A DNA stretch of 64,000 nucleotides from an uncultured Chloroflexia bacterium (GTDB taxonomy: Bacteria > Chloroflexota > Limnocylindria > Limnocylindrales > CSP1-4), in the NCBI GenBank assembly GCA_963713975.1, contig OY970218.1:3360001-3424000 (forward strand). The letters run 5' to 3'. A program made the position numbers and the translations under genes. Positions 38,270 to 51,398 of this stretch are shown one piece after another. A model generated the notes under the pieces. That model saw nothing but the letters and a program-made list of their open reading frames with translations, had not been told where the DNA came from and did not search any database. How positions within the stretch are numbered: position 1 is the first letter of the stretch; each line of letters begins with the position of its first letter.

Positions 38270-38629
38270 TCAGGCCAGCAGCTTGGCCTTGAGGGAGTCG
38301 TACTCGGGGATCGTGATCGCGCCGGCGTCGCGCAGCTGGGCGAGCTTGGCGAGCTCGTCCGCCGTGGACACCTGCGACGCCGCGGTCGTTGCGGCCTGGG
38401 CCTGGGTCATCATCTGCACGTCCTGGGCCGTGACCTTGGGCCGGGCGATGATGTAGATCAGGCAGCCGAGGAACGGGATGATGAAGATCACGAAGATCCA
38501 CACGGCCTTCATGCCGCCGTGGATGTCGTTGCGGCGGAAGATGTCCGTGAAGATGGAGATGAAGATCCAGATCGCCATCACCCAGAAGAAGAAGACGATC
38601 ATCGCCATGATCCATTCAGTAAAGTTCAT
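38270..38629 (-). CDS. PLDc_N plus SHOCT domain membrane protein
   Basis: DIFRRNDI.G.KAVW..IPFLG.LIY; ADELAKLAQLRDAGAIT..EYDSLKAKLL. Confidence 0.88.
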   Translation of the reverse strand: MNFTEWIMAMIVFFFWVMAIWIFISIFTDIFRRNDIHGGMKAVWIFVIFIIPFLGCLIYIIARPKVTAQDVQMMTQAQAATTAASQVSTADELAKLAQLRDAGAITIPEYDSLKAKLLA

Positions 38630-38825
38630 ATACCTCACCTAACCTCGGCACGGAGGCGTCTTCCCTCCGATGTGGAGCCCCATTGTGCTGTACGAGCCGC
38701 CTGAATGCGAGTGGGAGCGGCGGCACAAGGTCGGAGGTGCATGTCCGCCGCGTCGGACGCGGCCCGCTTGCCGGATCGGCTAGACACCGGTTCGGCCGTT
38801 CACGATGGCGAGCATGGAGGATTGG

Positions 38826-39480: not shown

Positions 39481-39804
39481 TCAGGCCTCGTTCCCGGGAC
39501 CCTCCCCCACTCCGCTCGCCTCCCGCAGCGTGTGCCCGTCCACGCGCCTCCCGAACCTCTTCGAGAGCTCCGCCACCAGAGCGTCGGCGACGTCGTCGGC
39601 ACCGCCCTCGCGCTCGGTCCAGGCCGACCACTCGAACTCCTCGAGATAGTCGTCCGTCCCCGCCAGCCCCTCGCGCATGGTGATCCGGCTGATCTCCTGC
39701 ATGAACCAGCGGGCCATCGTCCGGTTCGCCCGGCTCCCCGCGTCGTCGGTGGCCTGGACCTGGGTCGGGATCTCGCGCCAGGCGAGGACGCGGTAGCGGG
39801 CCAT
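39481..39804 (-). CDS. 'Virulence factor' family small protein
   Basis: YRVLAWREIPTQV..WFMQEISRITMREGLAGTDDYLEEFEW pattern; GGAGG SD. Confidence 0.7.
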   Translation of the reverse strand: MARYRVLAWREIPTQVQATDDAGSRANRTMARWFMQEISRITMREGLAGTDDYLEEFEWSAWTEREGGADDVADALVAELSKRFGRRVDGHTLREASGVGEGPGNEA

Positions 39805-39826
39805 GCGGGCTCCTCCGGCTCGGGAC

Positions 39827-40351
39827 CTAACAGCCCTGCCCGCTGGCGCGGTCCATGGCGCTGGCAAGGGCGTCCTTCTCCGCGTCCGGGAGGCTCCGGT
39901 CCAGCACCGCGAGGTACTGTTCCTCCTCGGCGAGGTGGACCTTGAGCAGCGCGTGCAGGCGGTACAGGGACCGCCGCAGGGCCAGACCCTCCATCTCGTC
40001 CCAGGTGCACTCGTTCTCGTGGACCTGGTAGGTGCCCAGCTCCGCGACCAGGAGCCGGACGGTCGCGTGCTCCTCGCGCATGGGGGCCATGGTGTGGCGG
40101 GGCCCCATCAGGGTCTCGAGGCGCTCGTACAGGATGGCCTCGAAAGCGTCCATGCGCGGGACGAGCTCGTCCGCCACGAAGGCGTACTCCTCGTTGTAGA
40201 GCGCGTGAAGCGCGGCGCATTCCACGCGCCCCACCATCTCGGCGAGGGTGAGGAGGCGGTCCACGTGCGGCATCAACCGCGCGTGGTAGGCCTCGCTGGT
40301 GGCGCGCAGCGAGGAGAGGTCGCCGGCGGGCTGGGGCGTGTCGGTGCTCAC
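39827..40351 (-). CDS. Hemerythrin domain protein
   Basis: H, E..LY, MREEH, HLAEEE motifs. Confidence 0.8.
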   Translation of the reverse strand: MSTDTPQPAGDLSSLRATSEAYHARLMPHVDRLLTLAEMVGRVECAALHALYNEEYAFVADELVPRMDAFEAILYERLETLMGPRHTMAPMREEHATVRLLVAELGTYQVHENECTWDEMEGLALRRSLYRLHALLKVHLAEEEQYLAVLDRSLPDAEKDALASAMDRASGQGC

Positions 40352-40455
40352 CGGGGCATCCTAGCCGGGCTCGGGTCTGCCCGCACCACGACCCTGGCCG
40401 GTACGTTCCCTTTCGGTGGTGCCGCAGGACTGGGCCTGCGGCACGTCACTCGAGG

Positions 40456-40947
40456 CTAGGCGCCTGCGACCGGGTGCTCCAGGGCCGCCTTGACCGCGTC
40501 AGCCACGTCGTCCGTGACGCCGTGCTCGATGATCCGGAGATAGGCATCCTCCTCCGCGAGGTGGACCTTCAGCAGCGCGTACAGGTGGAACAGGACGCGC
40601 CGGATCGAGAGGGTCCGTGCCAGGGTCACGTGGCCCTGGCCCTCGTCCACGAGCACGCCGAGCTCCGCGATCAGCTCCCGGATGCGGGCGTGCTCACGGC
40701 GCATGGGCGCCATGGAGTGGCGGTTCTGGAACATCCGCTCCAGCTCCGGGTAGAGGGCGCGCTCGGCGGCCTCCATGTGCGAAAGCAGCGTCCCGACGAG
40801 GAACCCTCGCAGATCGCGGAGGCTGGTCTGGGCCGCGTCGGGCGCGCTGGTGAGCAACGCGTCGGCGATCTCGGGCATGCGGTTCACGGTCTCGAGCAGC
40901 CGCTCGTGGTGCACGTGTGCCGTCTGCGGCAGCGTCTCGCTGGTCAT
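40456..40947 (-). CDS. Hemerythrin domain protein
   Basis: HHE, HMEAAERALYP, MRREH, HLAEED motifs. Confidence 0.85.
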   Translation of the reverse strand: MTSETLPQTAHVHHERLLETVNRMPEIADALLTSAPDAAQTSLRDLRGFLVGTLLSHMEAAERALYPELERMFQNRHSMAPMRREHARIRELIAELGVLVDEGQGHVTLARTLSIRRVLFHLYALLKVHLAEEDAYLRIIEHGVTDDVADAVKAALEHPVAGA

Positions 40948-40950
40948 GGC

Positions 40951-42159
40951 TCAGGCTCCTTCCGTTGGCTGGCGCGACAGGGCGACGTAGAACAGGGCCA
41001 CGGGCCGGTAGACCGCGTGGGCGAGCTTCATGAAGGGGGCGAGGAGCACGAGCTCCATCGCGACCGCGACGTGGACGAGGAACAGCCAGTAGCCCCAGGT
41101 GGGGGCGCTCGGCAGGTAGAGCGCGAGCTCGATCGCGAAGCCGGTGACGGCCGTGACCCACAGCAAGCCCAGCAGCAGCCAGTCGGCGGTGGTGGAGCGC
41201 TTGACGCTCCGGTTGGCGGCGCGGCGCCGGTCGATGATCAGGACGGTGGCCCCGTACACGAGGAGCGCCCCGGCGACGGTGCCAAGGAGCCGGACCGGGT
41301 ACCAGATCGGGACCGGGGTCCCCGTCTCCTTGATCCCGAGCAGCGCGAGCCCGTAGTCCAGGCCGGTGGCCAGCAGCAGGCCCAGGAAGCCCCAGACCAC
41401 GAGCGCATGGACCAGCCAGCGGCGGCGGTACCAGGGCACCGCCATCGCGACGTCGTCGGCCTCGCACTCCTCGCGGAAGCGGACCTGGCCCAGCGACTCG
41501 CGCCCGACGGCGCTCCACAGGGCGCGGCCGGTCCGGCCGAGTGCCGCACGCGACCCGAGCACGCTCCGCGGGCTCTCGCCCTCGCGGCGCCCGATGTCAC
41601 GGGCCATGGTCGCGATGCCCAGCACGCCGGCGAGGACGACCACGATCATGACGACGATGCCGGTGTCGTGGATGAGCTCGGACGGGATCCACTCGAAGAT
41701 CGCGAGGGTCTCGGTGCTCATGGGCCCGCGGGCCGAGTACATGAACGCCGCGAAGAGCACCGCCAGGAGGACGGCGACCACGGTCGCAAGGACCGGTCTG
41801 GTGTAGAGCGTCCGGGCAAGGTGCGTCCGGTCGTAGGAGGCGATGGCGTAGCGACGGGTCGCCGCCATGAACTCGGACGGATCGGCCTGCGTGGGGCAGG
41901 TCTCGGCGCACTCGCCGCACTGGTAGCACGCCCACAGCTCCTTGGAGCCCAGGAGCGCGTCCTTCATGCCCAGCTGGGCGTAGCGGATGATCCGGCGCGG
42001 GAAGGTGCCGTCGGTCTGGGACATGGGGCAGGTCGCGGAGCAAGTGCCGCAGGAGAAGCAGGCGCTGATGTCGGTGGCCCCGAAGCGCTGGAGGTCCGGG
42101 TACAGGCCCACGTCCAGGCGGGCGGGAGCGGCAACGGCGGGAACGGTGGTGGCAGTCAT
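40951..42159 (-). CDS. QmoC-like protein: HdrC-type 2x[4Fe-4S] domain fused to a cytochrome-b-like membrane domain
   Basis: CFSCGTCSATCP, CYQCGECAETCP, then TM helices with H residues (WLVHAL, LVHVA, KLAHAVYRP). Confidence 0.82.
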   Translation of the reverse strand: MTATTVPAVAAPARLDVGLYPDLQRFGATDISACFSCGTCSATCPMSQTDGTFPRRIIRYAQLGMKDALLGSKELWACYQCGECAETCPTQADPSEFMAATRRYAIASYDRTHLARTLYTRPVLATVVAVLLAVLFAAFMYSARGPMSTETLAIFEWIPSELIHDTGIVVMIVVVLAGVLGIATMARDIGRREGESPRSVLGSRAALGRTGRALWSAVGRESLGQVRFREECEADDVAMAVPWYRRRWLVHALVVWGFLGLLLATGLDYGLALLGIKETGTPVPIWYPVRLLGTVAGALLVYGATVLIIDRRRAANRSVKRSTTADWLLLGLLWVTAVTGFAIELALYLPSAPTWGYWLFLVHVAVAMELVLLAPFMKLAHAVYRPVALFYVALSRQPTEGA

Positions 42160-42404
42160 CAGGACTCCCGCCCGGTGGGCACGTACTGGAAGTAGCCGTC
42201 GGGGGCGTTGCCCTTGATCTCCTCGAGCCAGCCATAGCGCCGCATGCCCATGACCCAGAACAGGACCTCGTGGCTGGGCGAGCCGACGGCCTCGGCGATC
42301 TCGGGGACGGTGAGCGGGCCACCGCGCAGGGCTGCGAGGATGCGGGGCCGCATGACCGGCTCCTCCCTCATCACCTCGCGCGGGTCCCGGGACAGGTCAG
42401 GCAT
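42159..42404 (-). CDS. Small winged-helix protein
   Basis: RILAALRGGPLTVPEIAEAVG; stop/start overlaps with both neighbours. Confidence 0.75.
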   Translation of the reverse strand: MPDLSRDPREVMREEPVMRPRILAALRGGPLTVPEIAEAVGSPSHEVLFWVMGMRRYGWLEEIKGNAPDGYFQYVPTGRES

Positions 42405-44170
42405 CAGACGGGCACCTCCACGAGGCCCTCGATCATGGCGGTGATCTCGGCGTCGGTGTAGCCGAGCAGGTCGATCGCGTTCTCGGGGCAGATCGGCACG
42501 CAGCCGCCGCACCCCTTGCAGCCGGTCGGGCTGATGACCGCGAAGTGGCGATCCCCCTCCTCGGTCATGGAGATCGCGTCGTAGGGACAGGCCGTGAGGC
42601 AGTCGCCGCAGGCGGTGCACGCCTCGGGCTCCACGATCGCGACCAGGGGATCGAGCTCCGTGTAGCCCTTCTTGAGGACCGACGCGCTCTGGGTCACGGC
42701 GGCCAGGCCGGACATGACGCTCTCACCCGAGGTCTTCGGGCCCTGGCAGGCGCCGGCGATCAGCACGCCGTCCACCACGGTCTCGACGGGGCGGAGCTTG
42801 GGATGGATCTCGTTGAAGAAGCCGTCACTGCCGGCCGGCAGCTTGAGCACGTCCACCAGGCCCTGGTTCTCGCGCGGGACCATGCCCGTGACGAGGACCA
42901 CCAGGTCCACGGGGATCGCCATCTCGATCCGCTCGGTAAGCAGGTCGCGGACCGTGACGGTCAGGCGCCCGTCGGGGCCCTGGGACACGGACGGCGGCTC
43001 CTCGTTGTCGAACTTGAGGAAGACCGACCCGGTCGTGCGAGCCTCGGTGTACAGGGGCTCGAACTTGCCGTACGTGCGCATGTCCCGGTAGAGGTGGAAC
43101 TGGCGGATGGCCGGATCGAGGCCCGAGACCTCCACCGCCGTCTGGACCGTGGCGGCACAGCAGAACCGGGAGCAATACGAGTTGGCGCATCCGGCCGTTT
43201 TCCGGCTGCCGACGCAGTACACGTAGGCCACACTGCGGACCGGTCGGCCCTGCCACGCCAGGCTGCCGGTGGAGCCGTCCACCAGCTCTTTGAACTCCGT
43301 CAGGGTGACGACGCCGTCGATGCCATAGCCGAGCTCGCCCTCCTCGGGGCGGTAGTCGTCGAAGCCTGTGGCCACGACGATCGAGCCGACGGCGACCTCG
43401 ATGGCGCCGGCACCCTCGCCGCCGATCCGGAGGCTGACCAGGTAGTTGCCGAAGCTTCCGGCCTTGCCGACGAGCTCCGCGCCGGTGAGGACCGTGATCG
43501 TGGGGCGCTTGCGGACCTCGGCCACGAGGTTGCCGATCAGGTCCGTGCCCTTGCGGTTGTGGGGATACATCGCGCCGAGCCGGCCGACCCGGCCACCCAG
43601 CTCGAGCTCACGTTCGACGAGGGTCACCTTGAGGCCGATGTCGGCCAGGCCGACGGCCGCCCGGAGGCCCGCGATCCCGCCGCCGATGACCAGGGTGTGA
43701 GGGATCGTCTCCACGACCACCGGCTCGAGCGGCACGGTGTGACGGGTCCGCCCGATACCGGCCTCCACGAGAGCGGTTGCCTTGGCGGTCGCGCCATCGT
43801 GGTCGTCCGTGTGGACCCAGGAGCACTGCTCCCGGATGTTGACCTGGGTGTACTCGTAGGGGTTGAGGCCGGCCCGCTGGGCCACGCCGCGGAAGGTGTA
43901 CGTGTGCAGCTTGGGCGAGCACGAGGCGACCACGAGGCCGTCCAGCTGGTTGGCCTGGATGTCCTCCACGATCTCCGACTGGGTCGCGTCCGAGCAGGTG
44001 AACATCGCGGTCTTCGCGACGACGACGTCGCCGTTGCCGCGGATGTCATTGACCACCTTGTCGACGTCGACATAGTCGCTGATGTTGCCGCCGCAGTGGC
44101 AGACATACACCCCGATGCGGCGGCCGGTCTCGGCCTCGGGCGCCGGCTGCAGGACCGTCTCGTCGCTCAT
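42404..44170 (-). CDS. hdrA: Heterodisulfide reductase subunit A-like flavoprotein
   Basis: VYVCHCGGNI, ASCSP, NIREQCSWVH, IGGGIAG, YCVGSR..CSRFCC, C-terminal 2x[4Fe-4S]. Confidence 0.92.
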   Translation of the reverse strand: MSDETVLQPAPEAETGRRIGVYVCHCGGNISDYVDVDKVVNDIRGNGDVVVAKTAMFTCSDATQSEIVEDIQANQLDGLVVASCSPKLHTYTFRGVAQRAGLNPYEYTQVNIREQCSWVHTDDHDGATAKATALVEAGIGRTRHTVPLEPVVVETIPHTLVIGGGIAGLRAAVGLADIGLKVTLVERELELGGRVGRLGAMYPHNRKGTDLIGNLVAEVRKRPTITVLTGAELVGKAGSFGNYLVSLRIGGEGAGAIEVAVGSIVVATGFDDYRPEEGELGYGIDGVVTLTEFKELVDGSTGSLAWQGRPVRSVAYVYCVGSRKTAGCANSYCSRFCCAATVQTAVEVSGLDPAIRQFHLYRDMRTYGKFEPLYTEARTTGSVFLKFDNEEPPSVSQGPDGRLTVTVRDLLTERIEMAIPVDLVVLVTGMVPRENQGLVDVLKLPAGSDGFFNEIHPKLRPVETVVDGVLIAGACQGPKTSGESVMSGLAAVTQSASVLKKGYTELDPLVAIVEPEACTACGDCLTACPYDAISMTEEGDRHFAVISPTGCKGCGGCVPICPENAIDLLGYTDAEITAMIEGLVEVPV

Positions 44171-46944
44171 GCCGGCACCAGCTCGATCTGGGGAAGGGGC
44201 TTCGTCCGCTCGAGGTGGGCCGCGACCTGGGCCACGGCGGCACCCGCGTGCAGGATGGAGTCCGCGATGTCCTTGGCGCCGGACGCGGCCCCGGCCACGT
44301 AGACGCCGGGGATGCTGGTCTGGCCCGGGTTCACGTCCTCCTCCGGCTCCGCCACGTACTGCCATTCGTCCAGGGCGAGCTCGCCCACGTCGAACAGCCG
44401 CTCGGCGTCCTTGTTCGGCAGCACCCCCACCGCCAGCACGACCAGGTCGTACTCGGCCTCGGTGATCGCGCCGCCGTTCTCGATGTCCTCGTACTTGAGG
44501 ACCAGGTTCCCGCCCGGCAGCTCGGTCACGTCCGCGATCCGGCCCTTCACGTAGGTCGCGCCCATGTCCTTGGCCTGCTCGTAGAACTCGTCATAGCGCT
44601 TGCCCGGGGCCCGGATGTCCATGTAGTGGACGGTGATGTCGGCCAGGGGCAGGGCGCCCATCAGGAGCTGGTTCTGCTTGATGGAGTACATGCAGCAGAA
44701 GCGCGAGCAGAGCGGGTTGCCGACGGTCTCGTCGCGAGACCCGGTGCACAGGATGTAGGCGATCCGCTCGGGAACCTTCCCGTCGCCCGGGCGCAGGATC
44801 GTGTTGAACGGCCGCGTCGGAGCGAGCAGCCGGTCCATCTGCATGCCGGTGATGACGTTCTTGTACATGCCGAACCCGTACTCGGGCTTGAGGTCCGCGG
44901 GGAACAGCTTGAAGCCGGTGGAAACGACGACGGCGCCGACCCTGATGTCGCGCTCCTGGTCGGTCGCACGCAGGTCGATGCAGCCGTCCACGGGGCAGGC
45001 CGAGACACACTCGTTGCACTCGGAGCAGACGGCGCAGTCGATGCACCGGCCGGACGCCCGGCGGGCCTCCTGCTCCGTGAGCGGTGCCTCCACCTCGCGG
45101 AAGTCCGTGGGGGCCGTGACGAGCACGGAGCCCTCGGGCGTGGCCGCGGAGAGGGTGTAGGCCTTCTGGCGGGCCAGCACCTGCTGCTTGTCCACGACGG
45201 GCAGGCGCGTGTCCCAGTCGTCGAACTCACGGCCCGACAGCCAGGCGTCGATCTGGTGGGCGGCCTTGCGGCCCTCGCCCACCGCCCGCGTGATGTCCGT
45301 GGGCCCGTGCACCGCGTCGCCGGCGGCGAACACGTGGGGTGTCCCCGTCTGGCAGGTCACCGGGTCCGAGGTCACCCGGCCATTCTTCGCGACGGCGACG
45401 CGGTCGCCGAAGAGGCTTGTGTCAGGGCGCATGCCGATGGCGGCGATGATCACGTCGGCCGGGATCGTCGTGTCGGAGCCCGGGATGGGCTCGGCGGAGC
45501 GACGCCCGGAGGCATCCGGGGCGCCGAGGCGCATCTCCTGGCAGCGCAGCCCGGAGACCGCGCCCTGGGCATCACCGATGACCTCGGCCGGGGCCACCAG
45601 GAGCCGGAACTCGACGCCCTCCTTCTCGGCATCCGCTGCTTCCACGTGGTGGGCGGGCATCTCGTCGCGGCTGCGGCGATAGGCCACCGTCACGGAGGCC
45701 GCGCCAAGACGCCGCGCGGTTCGCGCCGCGTCCATCGCCACGTTGCCACCGCCCACGACGATGACGCGCTTGCCGGCGAGCTCGGGCGCATCGTCCAGCT
45801 TCACGCGGCGCAGGAAGTCCGTGCCGCCGAGGACGCCCAGGCGATCCTCGCCCGGGACGCCGAGACCGGTCGAGCGGTGGGTGCCGATGGCGACCAGCAC
45901 CGCGTCGAAGCCCTCGTCCTTGAGCGCGGCGGGATCCGTCACGGGGCTGTCGGTCACGATCTCCACGCCGAGCTCGGTGACGTTCTCGATGTCGCGGTCC
46001 ACCACCGCCTCGGGCAGCCGGTAGGACGGGATCCCCAGGCGCAGGAAGCCGCCGGCGACCGGAGCCGCCTCGTAGACCTTGACGGCGTAGCCCAGGCGGG
46101 CGAGCTGCCAGGCGGCGGTGAGGCCGGTGGGACCGGAGCCCACGATCGCGATTCGTCGTCCGTTGGGCGCCGGGCGCTCGATGCCGTTATCCGCGCCGCT
46201 CACGTCATGCGCGTCGGAGGCGAAGCGCTTGAGGCGGCGGATCGGGAGCGTTCCCTCCAGCGAGCCGCGGGTGCAGTCGACCTCGCACGGTGCGTAGCAG
46301 GCGCGTCCGAGGGTGCCGACGAACGGGGTGGCGTCCAGCACCAGCCGGTAGGCCTCCTCGTCGAGGCCGCTGCGGATCAGGCTGACGTAGCCGTGGGCCT
46401 GGATCCCGGCCGGGCACGCGAACGAGCACGGCGAGCTGCCGACACGATCGATGACGGCCTTCTTGGGCACGGCCTGGGGGAAGGCGATGTGGGCCGCGCG
46501 ACGGGCGACCAGGTCCGCATTGAACTGGTCGGGCACGGCCACCGTGCACGCGGTCTCGCACTTCTGGCAGCCGGTGCAGGTGTCGATGTCGACGAAGCGG
46601 GCCTTCTGGGTGACCTTCGCGTTGAACGTGCCGTCGGCCGAGGTCCGGATCTGGTCCACGCGGCCGTAGGTCATGGCGGTGATGTTCGGGTGGTGGATCG
46701 TCGACGCCATCTTGGGGGTCGAGATGCAGGAGGCGCAGTCGAGCGTGGGGAAGACCTTGCTGAGCAGGATCATCTTGCCGCCCACGCTGGCGTCCTTTTC
46801 GACCAGCAGGACCTTGTAGCCCATGTCGCCGAGCTTGAGAGCGGACTCCATGCCGCCGATGCCGGACCCGACGACCAGGACGTCGTAGTCGGTCGCGGTG
46901 GTGGCCTCGTCGCGGGTGGCGCAGGTGTCGGTCATCGTGGTCAT
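44167..46944 (-). CDS. HdrL-type protein: HdrA-like flavoprotein with inserted GltD-like NAD(P)H oxidoreductase module
   Basis: LSKVFPTLDCASC, CTGCQKC, CPAG..GRACYAPCEVDC, VGSGPTG, VGGGNVAMD, CTGSR..CSRFCCMY. Confidence 0.9.
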   Translation of the reverse strand: MTTMTDTCATRDEATTATDYDVLVVGSGIGGMESALKLGDMGYKVLLVEKDASVGGKMILLSKVFPTLDCASCISTPKMASTIHHPNITAMTYGRVDQIRTSADGTFNAKVTQKARFVDIDTCTGCQKCETACTVAVPDQFNADLVARRAAHIAFPQAVPKKAVIDRVGSSPCSFACPAGIQAHGYVSLIRSGLDEEAYRLVLDATPFVGTLGRACYAPCEVDCTRGSLEGTLPIRRLKRFASDAHDVSGADNGIERPAPNGRRIAIVGSGPTGLTAAWQLARLGYAVKVYEAAPVAGGFLRLGIPSYRLPEAVVDRDIENVTELGVEIVTDSPVTDPAALKDEGFDAVLVAIGTHRSTGLGVPGEDRLGVLGGTDFLRRVKLDDAPELAGKRVIVVGGGNVAMDAARTARRLGAASVTVAYRRSRDEMPAHHVEAADAEKEGVEFRLLVAPAEVIGDAQGAVSGLRCQEMRLGAPDASGRRSAEPIPGSDTTIPADVIIAAIGMRPDTSLFGDRVAVAKNGRVTSDPVTCQTGTPHVFAAGDAVHGPTDITRAVGEGRKAAHQIDAWLSGREFDDWDTRLPVVDKQQVLARQKAYTLSAATPEGSVLVTAPTDFREVEAPLTEQEARRASGRCIDCAVCSECNECVSACPVDGCIDLRATDQERDIRVGAVVVSTGFKLFPADLKPEYGFGMYKNVITGMQMDRLLAPTRPFNTILRPGDGKVPERIAYILCTGSRDETVGNPLCSRFCCMYSIKQNQLLMGALPLADITVHYMDIRAPGKRYDEFYEQAKDMGATYVKGRIADVTELPGGNLVLKYEDIENGGAITEAEYDLVVLAVGVLPNKDAERLFDVGELALDEWQYVAEPEEDVNPGQTSIPGVYVAGAASGAKDIADSILHAGAAVAQVAAHLERTKPLPQIELVPA

Positions 46945-47384
46945 TCCGCCTTCGCCGGGCCCATGGCGACCAGCGCCTCCGAGAACCCCTGCACGTGCTT
47001 GGTGAACGGCTCCGAGCACACCGAGCAGATCGCCGCCATGCGCAGCCGGCTGGCCGCGATGCCCTTCTCCTTCATCTGCTTCTGCGACTCCGACATGATC
47101 CGGCTGGAGCGCTTGGCACAATCGGGCAGGTAGGCGCACTCGTCGCCATCGGACGCCACGAACACGCCGTCGAACCCGGACGCCAGTGCGTGCAGGATCC
47201 AGGAGGGCCGGATGCCGCTGGTGCACGGCAGGCCGATGACGTTCACGCCCGGCGAGTAGTGCATGTGGGCGCTGCCGGCCAGGTCGATGCCGGGGTCGGA
47301 GATGTTGTTCGTGGAGAAGACGAGGATCCGCGGGACGAACGTGTCGCCCGGTGCCTGCGGTTCGGTCGCGACGGGTGCGGTCAT
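46941..47384 (-). CDS. mvhD: MvhD/FlpD [2Fe-2S] subunit
   Basis: DLAGSAHMHY, LPCTS, GFDGV, ECAY, ICSVC; ATGA coupling to the HdrL gene. Confidence 0.85.
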   Translation of the reverse strand: MTAPVATEPQAPGDTFVPRILVFSTNNISDPGIDLAGSAHMHYSPGVNVIGLPCTSGIRPSWILHALASGFDGVFVASDGDECAYLPDCAKRSSRIMSESQKQMKEKGIAASRLRMAAICSVCSEPFTKHVQGFSEALVAMGPAKAE

Positions 47385-47465
47385 GGACGCGGTGCTCCTG
47401 CGGGCCGGAGTGTCGTCGCGACGCGGGCCGTGAGGGCGGGTCGCGACGACATCAGCGATCGGGTG

Positions 47466-47726
47466 CTACTTGCGGCGGGTGACGAAGACGCGGTCGTAGC
47501 CGTCGGCCTCGAGGGTGCCCATGAAGTCGTGGCCGACCTTGGTCGACCAGGCGCTGATGTCGGACTTGGTGCCGGGATCGGTGGACCAGAGCTCCATGAC
47601 GGAGCCGACGGGGACACCGGACATGCCCTTCTTGGCCTCCAGGAGCGGGCCGGGGCAGGCGGCGCCACGGGCGTCGATGATCTCGGCGGCTTCGATGGCC
47701 TCGAGCTCGGCAACGGTTGCGGTCAT
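47466..47726 (-). CDS. tusA: TusA/SirA sulfur carrier
   Basis: IDARGAACPGPLL, STDPG..DI.AW..GH. Confidence 0.9.
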   Translation of the reverse strand: MTATVAELEAIEAAEIIDARGAACPGPLLEAKKGMSGVPVGSVMELWSTDPGTKSDISAWSTKVGHDFMGTLEADGYDRVFVTRRK

Positions 47727-47785
47727 TTCGAGTGGTCTCCTAGTACACGAGGGCGTTGGTGGCTGACGTGATCTCGACGATGGCG

Positions 47786-48193
47786 CTAGATGAAGACGAG
47801 CTGGCCATCCTCGGCAGCCAGCAGGAAGGCGGCGATGCCGCCCGACGAGTCGACGATGGGGTCCAGGGTCGTGACGTCGATGCCCAGCACGTCCAGCGAC
47901 CCGGAGCAGGCGAGGACCGAGACGGTTCCCAGCTCCTTGGCCATCCGGAAGGTCTCCAGCCACGGGATCGACCTGGTTCCGTGCACCGGCCGGCTGGTGC
48001 CGTCGGCGGTCGAGTCCCAAGCGAGCCCAAGGCTCTCCTCCAGGCGCTCGGTACGGAACGCGTCCAGGGCCCAGTACTGGAGCAGGATGTTCACGGGTCG
48101 GTCCATGGCCGCCGCGCCGGCGGCGAGCGTCGCCGCGGCGTGCAGTTTGTCGGCCGTGCCCGAGAACAGGACGAGGTTCAGGGTGTCGCTCAT
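47786..48193 (-). CDS. DsrE/DsrF-like (DsrE2) sulfur relay protein
   Basis: LFSGTADK..AAAM..YWAL..LACSGSLD. Confidence 0.82.
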   Translation of the reverse strand: MSDTLNLVLFSGTADKLHAAATLAAGAAAMDRPVNILLQYWALDAFRTERLEESLGLAWDSTADGTSRPVHGTRSIPWLETFRMAKELGTVSVLACSGSLDVLGIDVTTLDPIVDSSGGIAAFLLAAEDGQLVFI

Positions 48194-48576
48194 CGATTGG
48201 TCACCTGTGCCGGGAGTTGGGTGGTGGAGGTCGCGGGCTGTGCGTCACGGGCCGCGGCGGCGGCGAGGCTGCCGAGCGCGGACAGGCGACGAACGATCAC
48301 GCTGCGCATGAGGTCGCAGGCGGCAAGGATCTCGGGGTCGGCAAGGCGATAGCGAACCGCCCGACCGTCCCGCGTGGCATCCACGAGACCCGCGGCGCGC
48401 ATCGCGGCGAGGTTCTGGGACACCGTGGCCTGGGGCAGCGCCAGCTCCTGCGCGAGCTCGCGGACCTCGAGGGGGCCACGGCCGAGCAGATGGACGATCC
48501 GCAGCCGGTGCGTACCGGCGAGCGCCCGGATGAGGCCGATCTGGATCAGATCAATCTCATTGACGGGGTCGTACAC
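48190..48576 (-). CDS. ArsR/SmtB family transcriptional repressor
   Basis: RALAG.HRLRIVHLL..VSQNLAAMRAAGLV..RDG..VRY.L. Confidence 0.9.
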   Translation of the reverse strand: MYDPVNEIDLIQIGLIRALAGTHRLRIVHLLGRGPLEVRELAQELALPQATVSQNLAAMRAAGLVDATRDGRAVRYRLADPEILAACDLMRSVIVRRLSALGSLAAAAARDAQPATSTTQLPAQVTNR

Positions 48577-48616
48577 ATGGCCTCCTGCGCCCTTTGGAGT
48601 AACTGTCCTCTATATC

Positions 48617-48635
48617 TATATGCGATCTGCATATA
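48617..48635. promoter_or_regulatory. Putative ArsR operator palindrome
   Basis: TATATGC-GATCT-GCATATA in an AT-rich patch about 40 bp upstream of arsR. Confidence 0.6.
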
Positions 48636-48848: not shown

Positions 48849-49982
48849 TCAGGCGGCGGGGAGCTCCACGTCGAAGCGCGCTCCGGCTCCGGGCTGGTTG
48901 GCCACCGTCACGGTGCCGTCCAGGGCCACCACGATCGCGTGCACGATCGCGAGCCCGAGGCCGCTGGTGCCGGTGGACCGGTCCCGGGCAGGGTCGGCCT
49001 GGTAGAAGCGGTCGAAGACGTGGGCGAGGTCGTCGGTGGCGATCCCCGGGCCCGAGTCCAGGACGGTGATCCGGACCCGGCCCGGCGAGGTCGTCGACGC
49101 AGCCGCCCCGATCCGTACCCAGCCGCCGGCGCCCGCGTAGCGGAGCGCATTGTCGGCGAGGGCGTTCAGGACCTGGCGCAGCCGGTCCGAGTCGGCGCGG
49201 ACGGCGAGGGGGCCCGGATCGACCGCCTCCACGCGCGGCCCACCGGGCGATGAACGGGCTGCGGCGGCACGTACGACGGCCTCGAGCAGCGGCTGCAGCA
49301 GGACGGCCTCGATGTGCAGCGGCAGGGACCCCGACTCGGCCAGCGACACGGTCCGCAGGTCGTCGACGATCCGGCCCAGCAGCCGTGCCTGCTCCCGGAT
49401 CGTCTCGAGGTGGCGGTCGTCGTGCTCGTAGACACCATCGATGACGGCAGAGGTCGTGGCATCGATGACGGCGAGCGGCGTCTTGAGCTCGTGTGCCGCG
49501 TCCGCGAAGAACCGGCGGCGGGCAACCTCCGTCGCCTGGAGGCCAGCCGCCATCCCGTCGAACGAGCGCGCCAGGGAACCGATCTCATCGGTCCGGTCGG
49601 CGAGACCCGATCGCACCTCGAGATCACCCCTCGCCACGGCCGCGGCCGCCTCCTCGAGCCGGCCCAGGGGCCGGACCGTGCGCGTCGCCAGGACCAGCCC
49701 GACAAGGAACGCGACCACGGCCGCCGCGATGGCGACCAGGACCAGGGTGAGGATCGTCTCCTGTTGGACCTGCTGCCAGTACAGCGCCCCCTGGCCGGTC
49801 CCCGCTCCCCCGCTGGGCCCGTTGCCCAGCCCGCCCCCAGGCCCTGGGTGAGCGGCGGACGCGTCGCCGAGCGCCGCGGCGAACCCGCGCCCGACGATGG
49901 ACGGGGCCGCGACGACCACGGCCGCGGCCGTCAGGAGGGCCACGAGCGCCATCACGGACGCGAGACGCGCCCGGAGGTTCAC
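48849..49982 (-). CDS. Sensor histidine kinase (HAMP-HisKA-HATPase, BaeS-like)
   Basis: DEIGSLARSF, AAHELKTPL, NALRY, DSGPGI, GLGLAI. Confidence 0.94.
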   Translation of the reverse strand: MNLRARLASVMALVALLTAAAVVVAAPSIVGRGFAAALGDASAAHPGPGGGLGNGPSGGAGTGQGALYWQQVQQETILTLVLVAIAAAVVAFLVGLVLATRTVRPLGRLEEAAAAVARGDLEVRSGLADRTDEIGSLARSFDGMAAGLQATEVARRRFFADAAHELKTPLAVIDATTSAVIDGVYEHDDRHLETIREQARLLGRIVDDLRTVSLAESGSLPLHIEAVLLQPLLEAVVRAAAARSSPGGPRVEAVDPGPLAVRADSDRLRQVLNALADNALRYAGAGGWVRIGAAASTTSPGRVRITVLDSGPGIATDDLAHVFDRFYQADPARDRSTGTSGLGLAIVHAIVVALDGTVTVANQPGAGARFDVELPAA

Positions 49983-50689
49983 GGCCGCGCTCCGCGATAG
50001 CCGACGCCGCGGATCGTCTCGATGTACGGCTCACCACCCGGCCTGCTGCTCAGCTTGTGGCGCAGGTTCTTCACGTGGCTGTCGATCGTCCGGTCGAAGG
50101 CGTCGAAGGCCTCGCCGAACACCATCTCGCCGAGCTGCTCGCGGTTCAGGGCGACGCCCGGGCGCCCGGCGAACGCGAGAAGGAGGTCGAACTCCGCGCG
50201 GGTGAGCGCGAGCAGGGTGGTGCCACGACGGACCTCGCGCCCGGCTGGGTCGATCTCGAGATCGAACCAGGTGGCCGCGCCGTCGGGTCCTGCTCCGCCC
50301 GGGGTCATGGCGGCGACGGGGGCCGCCTGCGTCCGCCGCAGGACGGCGCTGACCCGGGCCACCAGCTCGCGTGGCTCGAATGGCTTCGTGACGTAGTCGT
50401 CGGCGCCGATCTCGAGGCCGGCCACGCGATCGATCACGTCGTCGCGGGCCGTCAGCAGCACGACCGGCACCGTGCTTCCGGAGCGGCGCAGCTCGCGCAG
50501 GACGTCGAAGCCGTTCCGGCCGGGCAGCATCACGTCCAGGACCACGAGGTCCGGCGCGGACCGGAGAGCGAGCTCGAGGGCAATGGTCCCGTCGGTGGCC
50601 GTGAGCACATCATGGCCGTCCCGGGCAAGGTACGCCCTGACGACCTCGAGGATATGCGGTTCGTCGTCCACGACGAGGATGCGCGGCAT
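49979..50689 (-). CDS. OmpR family response regulator
   Basis: VVDDE, LDVMLP, GADDYVTKPF, DSHVKNLRHKL, TIRGVGY. Confidence 0.95.
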   Translation of the reverse strand: MPRILVVDDEPHILEVVRAYLARDGHDVLTATDGTIALELALRSAPDLVVLDVMLPGRNGFDVLRELRRSGSTVPVVLLTARDDVIDRVAGLEIGADDYVTKPFEPRELVARVSAVLRRTQAAPVAAMTPGGAGPDGAATWFDLEIDPAGREVRRGTTLLALTRAEFDLLLAFAGRPGVALNREQLGEMVFGEAFDAFDRTIDSHVKNLRHKLSSRPGGEPYIETIRGVGYRGARP

Positions 50690-50720
50690 GGGGCGAGCAT
50701 CCGGGGACGACACCGGCCCG

Positions 50721-51398
50721 TCAAGCGGAGCGGTGTGTCCCGGCCCGACGCGCGTGCACAACGGCGTCGATGGGGACCGCGGCGCCCGGCCCGCGGCGCA
50801 CCGTGGCCGCTTGGACGACCGTGAACCCCGCCGGCAGGCCTGCCACGACCTCCGCAGGCACGAACAGCACATCAGGGTCCTGCGGCCCGCCGACACCCTC
50901 CGCAAGGTTGAGGAGGTCGTGCCCGACCACGAGGAGGCTCCCACCCGGCGCCACGGCCGCAGCGGCTCGCTCGTACACGCCCCGGCGCTCGTCCCCGGGC
51001 AGGTGGATGAACATCAGCAGCACCAGGTCGAACGCCCGGGCATCGGGCTCCCACGTGAGCAGGTCCACCAGCCGCCAGTCGATTTCCACGCCCATCGCTT
51101 CCGCAGCGGCCGCCGCCCGCTCGAGCGCGACTCCCGAGAAGTCGGCGGCCGTCACCCGCCAGCCGTCCGCCGCCAGCCGGATCGCGTTCCGCCCGTCACC
51201 GGTCCCCAGGTCCAGAGCTCGCCCGGGCGCCAGGTCTCGCGCGACGGCCACGAGGGTCGGATCGGGCTCGTGGGCCTCGATGGGGTCGTGCGCCGAGTGC
51301 CGCGCATCCCAGAGCTCGCGGCGCGACGGACCTGCTGCGCCGCTGCTCGCGTCGGCCTCGGCCTTCGGGCCGGACGCGTTCCGTACAGGCTCCGTCAC
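50721..51398 (-). CDS. Class I SAM-dependent methyltransferase
   Basis: ALDLGTGDGRNA, DFSGVAL, FDLV. Confidence 0.9.
   Translation of the reverse strand: MTEPVRNASGPKAEADASSGAAGPSRRELWDARHSAHDPIEAHEPDPTLVAVARDLAPGRALDLGTGDGRNAIRLAADGWRVTAADFSGVALERAAAAAEAMGVEIDWRLVDLLTWEPDARAFDLVLLMFIHLPGDERRGVYERAAAAVAPGGSLLVVGHDLLNLAEGVGGPQDPDVLFVPAEVVAGLPAGFTVVQAATVRRGPGAAVPIDAVVHARRAGTHRSA

Follow-up and report, generated by a model that had tools for sequence, protein, structure and literature searches.

What does a membrane-bound redox complex of the Qmo/Hdr type do when its usual catalytic partners are not encoded with it? Qmo and Hdr complexes have a central part in the cycling of sulfur and methane, and the 'orphan' Qmo-like complexes that occur without Apr or Dsr have no assigned role. 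The question is raised by an operon in a 64,000-nt window of DNA (the whole stretch analyzed here, positions 3,360,001 to 3,424,000 of contig OY970218.1, assembly GCA_963713975.1) from an uncultured Chloroflexia bacterium of the Limnocylindrales. Its eleven genes all lie on the minus strand at 39481-48576, as established by an open reading frame (ORF) listing and by Pfam and NCBIfam profile scans, and follow the order arsR, dsrE2B-like gene, tusA, mvhD, hdrL, hdrA, small winged-helix (wHTH) gene, qmoC-like gene, two hemerythrin genes and a PF13769-domain gene. An original prediction, made from the letters of the window, had given this gene list, the minus strand and the frequent stop/start overlaps, and all eleven genes are indeed found at that place. 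It had also taken the operon for an oddity, and in this it has to be corrected: the operon is real and conserved, and it is an ordinary member of a very widespread, unstudied cassette family. The orphan Qmo-like complexes gain constant companions in this family, namely TusA, DsrE, a small winged-helix protein and often ArsR.

The family is recognized by the strict gene order tusA-mvhD-hdrA-hdrA-wHTH-qmoC. At least eight phyla contribute to the 65 examined loci with this order: besides the operon itself, it is kept in 14 of the 20 related regions and in 50 of the 80 cross-phylum loci, the last sample being the best 80 of 577 relatives kept from a QmoC alignment scan with one genome per species. 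The titles of these 80 include Chloroflexota, Bacteroidota, Planctomycetota, Acidobacteriota, Desulfobacterota, Verrucomicrobiota, Krumholzibacteriota, Armatimonadota and others. All 65 strict loci have tusA directly upstream of mvhD and the wHTH gene between hdrA and qmoC, and a DsrE-family gene occurs within 9 kb in 49 of the 50 cross-phylum strict loci, so that the conservation of tusA and dsrE, which had been proposed as a check on the original prediction, is borne out. Of the same 50 loci, 24 include arsR, 10 have a gene for a YeeE/YedE-type sulfur transporter and seven carry HdrL in its long form, and no match to aprA, aprB or sat occurs in any of the 80 cross-phylum loci. Judged by gene content, TusA, a DsrE-family protein and a small winged-helix protein are the constant company of the cassette, AprAB and HdrB are never part of it, and an arrangement repeated in this way is evidently not the product of chance.

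The loci that depart from the strict order are of several kinds. The rest of the 80 cross-phylum loci consist of 14 with wHTH-qmoC whose upstream part is cut or split and 16 with other architectures that lack the winged-helix gene. Eight loci (L079, L094, L097, L112, L116, L122, L130, and L137) have the order hdrA-qmoC-hdrA-mvhD without tusA or wHTH, and this order is carried by Bacteroidales, Elusimicrobia and one record titled Methanoperedens. Among the 20 related regions, L045 has a split hdrA match, L046 and L050 are cut by contig ends, and L040 is degraded. In the latter (G405:C3:34946-54145), hdrL and most of hdrA are missing and a remnant of mvhD and hdrA is left in one ORF, with arsR, dsrE2, tusA, the wHTH gene, qmoC and the hemerythrin genes still in place. 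The two remaining exceptions, L053 and L054, come from the same phylum and are canonical sat-aprBA-qmoABC clusters without tusA or wHTH, whose QmoC is only about 30% identical to that of the operon. In L051, a protein with FAD_binding_2 and Succ_DH_flav_C domains lies 5 kb upstream and carries a weak aprA label, with no aprB or sat accompanying it.

Closer to the operon, the QmoC-like protein is present in 28 of 36 genomes of the same genus and in none of 24 genomes (about 1 Mb in size) of a sister family; in an even sample of the phylum it occurs in 18 of 401 genomes, the source genome included. A FastTree tree of QmoC, on which a single origin of the HdrL insert was considered, places the lineage of the operon in a deep clade of 14 rows against the other 51, and requires at least five changes of the long HdrL state. 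The hemerythrin and PF13769 genes that follow qmoC are found only in the class-level lineage of the operon (the PF13769 gene also follows the hemerythrins in L039, L055, L056, and L057), and no hemerythrin match occurs in the 80 cross-phylum loci; going by this distribution, they are lineage-specific additions. Full-text literature searches, with supplements outside their scope, returned no published description of the tusA-mvhD-hdrA-hdrA-wHTH-qmoC gene set, and none appears in the excerpts used here, as throughout, of PMC12142623, PMC13490349, PMC10504309, PMC8528874, PMC12998232, PMC11094781, and PMC3333476.

The features of the operon, in the direction of reading, are as follows.

48617..48635, no strand: operator-like palindrome TATATGC-N5-GCATATA, 41 nt upstream of the arsR start
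48190-48576, minus strand: arsR, ArsR/SmtB-family repressor, 128 aa with one Cys (C87) (HTH_5, E 6e-12)
47786-48193, minus strand: DsrE2B-like sulfur transferase, 135 aa with conserved Cys96 (PF13686, E 2.5e-10)
47466-47726, minus strand: tusA, sulfur carrier, 86 aa with Cys24 in CPGP (PF01206)
46941-47384, minus strand: mvhD, free-standing [2Fe-2S]-type electron-transfer subunit, 147 aa (FlpD, E 2e-26)
44167-46947, minus strand: hdrL, QmoA-like HdrA flavoprotein with an NfnB/GltD-type NADPH-FAD-2x[4Fe-4S] module (Pfam and NCBIfam matches)
42404-44170, minus strand: hdrA, flavoprotein, 588 aa (methanogen HdrA matches)
42159-42404, minus strand: small winged-helix (wHTH) gene, 81 aa, no Cys (generic winged-helix matches)
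40951-42159, minus strand: qmoC-like membrane subunit (NF038018, E 4e-62)
40456-40947, minus strand: hemerythrin-domain protein 1 (PF01814, E 4e-12)
39827-40351, minus strand: hemerythrin-like protein 2 (PF01814 at 19.1 bits, under the Pfam cut-off; 37% identity to hemerythrin 1)
39481-39804, minus strand: PF13769-domain protein (PF13769, E 8.7e-11)

The genes are tightly packed, with junctions of -4 nt (arsR/dsrE), 59 nt (dsrE/tusA), 81 nt (tusA/mvhD), -7 nt (mvhD/hdrL), -4 nt (hdrL/hdrA), -1 nt (hdrA/wHTH), -1 nt (wHTH/qmoC), 3 nt (qmoC/hemerythrin 1), 104 nt (hemerythrin 1/2) and 22 nt (hemerythrin 2/PF13769 gene), in surroundings of 70-75% G+C.

The redox subunits describe a route from NADPH to the membrane. 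The QmoC-like protein joins an HdrC-type 2x[4Fe-4S] domain (Fer4_8, E 3e-11) to a NarI/HdrE-type membrane domain (Nitrate_red_gam, E 1e-6), the build of canonical QmoC with its di-haem HdrE-like part, and scores 210.7 bits against the NCBIfam qmoC equivalog NF038018, whose cut-off of 300 is not reached. In the cassette alignment, eight of its cysteines are invariant and His251, His363, and His381 are conserved; Cys232 and these three histidines are common to apr-linked QmoC. With two predicted [4Fe-4S] clusters and b-type haem ligands, the subunit is expected to tie the complex to the quinone pool. The HdrA protein aligns with its methanogen counterparts (8rvu and 5odc, E about 1e-105): an N-terminal iron-sulfur (FeS) domain is followed by a FAD domain, and the protein ends after a 2x[4Fe-4S] ferredoxin domain; the inserted ferredoxin domain and the TLDCxxC motif are both lacking. 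HdrL begins at the FAD fold, with no N-terminal domain, and keeps the motif in the form FPTLDCASC. A large insert splits its ferredoxin insert into two halves, and residues about 180-635 are missing in the short-type relatives. This insert matches Fer4_20 (E 1e-13) and Pyr_redox_2 (E 9e-44), and in an AlphaFold2 (AF2) model of HdrL it is assigned a predicted local distance difference test (pLDDT) score of 80-95, against 71 for the model overall. Foldseek relates it to StnABC subunit C (8oh5_C, E 3e-49), NfnABC (9bov_A), and NfnI-L (5jca_L), at 35-40% identity. The NADPH module has a YRR motif, invariant in 17 HdrL sequences, as a putative 2'-phosphate site. In MvhD, C120 and C123 are invariant in 65 sequences.

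From this domain content, HdrA and MvhD correspond to a split QmoB, and HdrL to a QmoA with a built-in NfnB/Stn-type NADPH-FAD module; HdrA and HdrL together may mimic one HdrA dimer. The predicted cofactors line up as a wire running NADPH-FAD-FeS-FAD-FeS-haem b-quinone. The winged-helix protein, whose AF2 model has a pLDDT of 86, was considered as a DsrD-like protein and rejected as such: Pfam scans of 65 members gave generic HTH families only, and Foldseek gave only generic MarR/SmtB/Z-alpha folds at E of 2e-3 or above.

The nearest described counterpart is QmoABC, which is found in sulfate reducers and some sulfur oxidizers (PMC3333476). The operon shares with it a membrane QmoC in which an FeS domain like HdrC is joined to a cytochrome b like HdrE, two HdrA-like flavoproteins, an MvhD module and the lack of HdrB (PMC3333476). 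Unlike canonical Qmo, it has no AprAB or Sat, and AprA and Sat are absent from the genome; the position of the partner enzyme in the gene cluster is taken by TusA and DsrE. MvhD has a gene of its own upstream of hdrL instead of forming a C-terminal MvhD-like fusion on QmoB, an NfnB-type NADPH module sits in the QmoA-like subunit, and a winged-helix gene precedes qmoC. A 'type II' Qmo also occurs in organisms without Dsr or Apr, and its role needs experiments (PMC10504309). The operon resembles it in having HdrA-like QmoA/B and QmoC in a genome without Apr and Dsr, and the comparison, made by description only, finds no mention of TusA, DsrE, a winged-helix gene or an NADPH insert in the excerpted account (PMC10504309).

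Other Hdr-type systems are more remote. The HdrA domain build and the separate [2Fe-2S] MvhD subunit are like those of methanogen HdrABC-MvhAGD (5odc, 8rvu), whereas the operon has no HdrB, HdrC or hydrogenase and its output goes to quinone through QmoC; the hallmark of HdrABC, an HdrB with two CCG domains and an HdrC beside HdrA, is not found there. The HdrL insert resembles the subunit of NfnAB, NfnABC, and StnABC (5jca, 9bov, 8oh5) that binds NADPH, FAD and two [4Fe-4S] clusters, but it is set inside an HdrA-type flavoprotein and has no NfnA or StnAB partner. With the sHdr system the operon has in common that genes for TusA and for DsrE-family carriers accompany those of a complex containing HdrA (PMC11094781). 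Unlike sHdr (of the shdrC1B1AHC2B2 or B3 type), the operon has no HdrB/HdrC (CCG) genes at or near it and has a membrane QmoC anchor instead. The sHdr system is controlled by an ArsR-type regulator. The distinction from both canonical Qmo and sHdr that had been drawn in the original prediction is upheld. Finally, sulfur disproportionation has a proposed marker in the YedE-TusA-DsrE (YTD) cluster (PMC8528874; PMC12998232). A similar dsrE2-tusA-yeeE-dsrE2 tail follows 10 of the 50 cross-phylum cassettes, while no YeeE/YedE gene lies next to the operon.

TusA scores 58.1 bits against PF01206 (cut-off 28.6), and its Cys24-Pro-Gly-Pro motif is invariant in all 65 cassette TusAs; against the E. coli TusA equivalog NF001423 it scores 29.2 bits, and the cut-off of 78 is not reached. 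No usable cassette-specific TusA signature emerged from an alignment with two TusAs of the sulfide:quinone reductase (SQR) cluster described below and four TusAs of other loci. The best solved relative of the DsrE protein is 2qs7 (E 2.9e-15), which aligns over the whole length, ACS with ACS at the active-site Cys, and which has been named a DsrE2B (PMC11094781). Between dsrE2 and tusA, relatives of the operon carry one more DsrE gene, of the classical type (about 121 aa, CxPC), for example at L055:9026-9394 and L044:9667-10032.

A profile search for longer TusA homologues, in which 120 proteins were listed, showed what TusA can be joined to. An ArsR-type helix-turn-helix (HTH) domain precedes TusA in 38 of the 120 listed. 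An MvhD domain occurs on two of these 120, P0105 and P0118, of which P0105 is a clean TusA-MvhD fusion protein and P0118 is likely a frameshifted read-through. All four TusA-only longer homologues that were inspected combine a Cys-less TusA-like domain with a cassette-type TusA. In P0002, P0013, P0015, and P0101, such tandem proteins begin with the Cys-less, degenerate domain and continue with the cassette-type TusA.

A metagenome scan with one ArsR-TusA fusion as query gave 80 loci (L145-L224), and all such loci of at least 4 kb run on into mvhD-hdrA-hdrA-wHTH-qmoC as far as the sequence reaches. Stop-free fusions make up five of the 80, with mvhD within 400 nt in all five and qmoC in both of the two that have enough sequence. 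In most of the remaining loci, arsR and tusA lie in the same frame, separated by stop codons. Selenocysteine insertion or read-through was considered for these in-frame stops and discarded; the stops are mixed (TAA 56, TGA 32, TAG 7) and scattered in the linker, and are therefore ordinary stops. ArsR-TusA fusions at the head of the cassette are a new observation and are common. Since the fusions head the cassette, ArsR and TusA are functionally tied, a tie that supports sulfur-responsive control and weakens the case for TusA as a substrate carrier only. The fusions suggest that TusA may belong to the sensing arm, serving the sensor as much as the enzyme, and they offer a direct handle on sulfane sulfur sensing.

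The regulator itself scores 74.8 bits against NF033788 (cut-off 55). The palindrome upstream of its gene overlaps a -10-like AT-rich stretch, and the core ATATGC-N5-GCATAT has this as its sole perfect site in the 3.62-Mb genome. A similar box is found at the same place upstream of arsR in six relatives (L055, L056, L058, L041, L040, and L044), and we infer that the palindrome is a candidate ArsR operator. A wider palindrome regulon was considered and rejected, the only perfect site being at arsR and the single site with one mismatch being about what chance would give (our own estimate is 0.6). That one-mismatch site overlaps the start of a gene for a His-rich PadR-type regulator (C1:2510769-2511914; L142:4270-5415), a family assignment read from the translation and not from a profile scan. 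The PadR-type gene is followed by a small Cys-rich ORF and then by a third hemerythrin paralogue.

The genome beyond the operon bears on whether a partner enzyme could be encoded elsewhere. It consists of one contig of 3.62 Mb with a marker completeness of 92%. In profile searches of this contig, the best AprA match reaches 22.8 bits against a cut-off of 641.75, and neither a PF01747 ATP sulfurylase (Sat) nor DsrA is found. Stand-alone HdrB is also absent from the genome, where CCG domains occur solely in four fused Fer4+CCG proteins. These lie 147 kb to 3.2 Mb from the operon, none of them beside HdrC or HdrA; one has a FAD-oxidase domain, and another has a long hydrophobic N-terminal part (read from the sequence) followed by Fer4 and two CCG domains. 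The original prediction that the operon comes without HdrB, AprAB and hydrogenase therefore stands. AprA, Sat, DsrA, and stand-alone HdrB are absent from the genome as a whole, which has a single HdrA-type cassette, and the AprAB or HdrB partners that would have spoken against the original prediction are thus not found.

The genome has one PAPS_reduct gene and no NIR_SIR (siroheme sulfite/nitrite reductase) domain, and NIR_SIR is likewise found in 0 of the 61 genomes of the order sample (this genome and 60 relatives). The lineage without NIR_SIR apparently cannot reduce sulfite with the usual enzyme and must therefore rely on reduced sulfur. A correlation of the cassette with the loss of sulfite reductase was considered and proved uninformative, because NIR_SIR is missing from all 61 whether or not they have the cassette. 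A second sulfur cluster is present at C1:2314034-2317139 (L143:7041-10139), with the order arsR-dsrE2-tusA-dsrE2-tusA and an SQR-like flavoprotein gene (Pyr_redox_2 and FCSD_central). Its ArsR has two cysteines and is 54% identical to the ArsR of the operon, and about 6 kb upstream of the cluster there is a gene for a [NiFe]-hydrogenase large subunit (L143:254-1609).

We favor, with belief and doubt evenly balanced, the reading that the operon encodes a Qmo-type membrane redox complex of a 'sulfur-carrier cassette' family that acts on sulfane sulfur. For Qmo, flavin-based confurcation with a low-potential co-donor as third partner has been proposed (PMC3333476). By analogy with that proposal, NADPH and the menaquinone pool would be coupled at the flavins of the complex by bifurcation or confurcation, and the third, low-potential partner would be sulfane sulfur carried on TusA or DsrE2B as a persulfide or thiosulfonate. 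In the preferred direction, the sulfur would be reduced and released as sulfide, a step for which menaquinol as sole reductant would not suffice; this direction is purely inferred. ArsR would act as the repressor of the operon, binding the palindrome in front of arsR, and TusA would probably also hand sulfur to ArsR as a signal. The lineage has no siroheme sulfite reductase, and the complex would assist it in managing or providing reduced sulfur, with the hemerythrins and the PF13769 gene perhaps giving protection from oxygen or iron. The persulfide mechanism that the original prediction had put forward for an NAD(P)H:quinone complex is in this sense plausible but unproven, including the part given to ferredoxin and the induction by sulfane sulfur. 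A bolder form of the favored reading, tentative and probably too ambitious as a whole, would make the complex a third Hdr/Qmo-type machine: a peripheral FeS cluster or a flavin would itself reduce (or form) the persulfide on TusA or DsrE, with no HdrB-type subunit involved, and flavin-based bifurcation would link this step to menaquinone and, where the HdrL subtype is present, also to NADPH; the same TusA would signal the sulfur load to ArsR, and the complex would be a main gate for reduced sulfur in an order without sulfite reductase. In either form, the cassette could reveal a new coupling of protein-bound sulfur to the quinone pool and NADPH. As the cassette occurs in many phyla, one biochemical study would annotate hundreds of genomes.

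Several observations weigh against the sulfane-sulfur reading. The alignments of HdrL, HdrA, and MvhD contain no orphan conserved Cys that could act as an S-S catalytic site; the well-conserved cysteines of these proteins and of QmoC are all FeS ligands or are common to canonical QmoC. On the carrier side, the operon has no classical DsrE gene, only a 59-nt spacer at 47727-47785 (L040 and L041 likewise lack the gene), and no YeeE homologue is found beside the operon or, with the L052 query, in the genome. As a substrate carrier, a TusA that is part of a DNA-binding repressor is unusual, and a signalling role is therefore favored for it. The ArsR, for its part, scores 39.6 bits against BigR (NF040642), far below the cut-off of 155, and the lineage of the operon keeps only the second of the two cysteines (alignment columns 16 and 87) that are kept in the cassette ArsRs of other phyla. 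The first Cys of those ArsRs does not align with the BigR Cys position. The evidence for expression is also weak, consisting of short contigs from relatives in two RNA libraries of one study: metatranscriptome contigs from the two runs, 92-99% alike, cover 39.6-48.2 kb, with almost none on 48.6-50.2 kb, and they represent relatives' sequence in RNA libraries and not proof of transcription.

One alternative is that TusA and DsrE serve the sensor only, relaying sulfane sulfur to ArsR, and that the enzyme is a general NADPH:quinone oxidoreductase, possibly ferredoxin-coupled, for redox balancing, with its expression tuned by sulfur status. The ArsR-TusA fusions that head the cassette (38 of the 120 longer homologues listed), the adjacent or overlapping arsR and tusA genes of many loci and the lack of a sulfur-chemistry site in the redox subunits agree with this account, and the NfnB-type module and QmoC would suffice as an NADPH-to-quinone wire. 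However, tusA directly precedes mvhD in every one of the 65 strict loci, even in the 26 of the 50 cross-phylum ones where no arsR was detected, and the DsrE-family genes and the YeeE-TusA-DsrE set (10 of 50 loci) exceed what a sensor needs. The enzyme would moreover have no evident soluble substrate in the 43 of 50 cassettes without the NADPH module, and one TusA-MvhD fusion does exist. We consider this alternative unlikely as a full account.

It is also conceivable, with a lower probability still, that the complex runs in the oxidative direction: sulfide or carrier sulfur would be oxidized, with electrons bifurcated to menaquinone (downhill) and to NADP+ or ferredoxin (uphill) and persulfide loaded on TusA/DsrE, as an energy-saving alternative to SQR. 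The architecture, with two flavins of the bifurcating type, is reversible in principle, and Qmo is reversed in sulfur oxidizers (PMC10504309). Since the genome has the arsR-dsrE2-tusA-dsrE2-tusA-SQR-like cluster, sulfide oxidation is part of its biology; however, the complex has no conserved Cys pair or other sulfide-oxidizing site, and the genome has no downstream oxidation enzymes (sHdr, rDsr, Apr/Sat). Many carriers, moreover, are metagenome-assembled genomes titled Anaerolineales or Bacteroidales, groups of a fermenting type, in which sulfide oxidation is less expected. Very improbable, finally, is the reading that the complex is a Qmo or Hdr of the ordinary kind and that the gene for its catalytic partner (AprAB, HdrBC or sHdr/LbpA) lies elsewhere. 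The four CCG-domain proteins, one of them with the hydrophobic N-terminus, Fer4 and two CCG domains, could be taken for such a partner, but they are Fer4+CCG fusions, distant and not beside HdrC or HdrA, and AprA, Sat, and DsrA are missing from the single-contig genome. There is only one HdrA cassette to be partnered, and the apr-linked clusters of the same phylum are of a distant type, as the QmoC identity of about 30% indicates.

The immediate surroundings of the operon hold further genes on both sides. Consensus promoter and terminator scans were uninformative. Upstream of arsR, on the same strand and separated from it by 272 nt, is a two-component system of a HAMP histidine kinase (48849-49982) and an OmpR-type response regulator (49979-50944), a pair that is kept at this place in four close relatives (L040, L055, L056, and L058). 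Just downstream of the operon, at 38270-38638, is a gene for a small PLDc_N/SHOCT membrane protein, of which the genome has a second copy at C1:2056945-2057304 with 83% identity.

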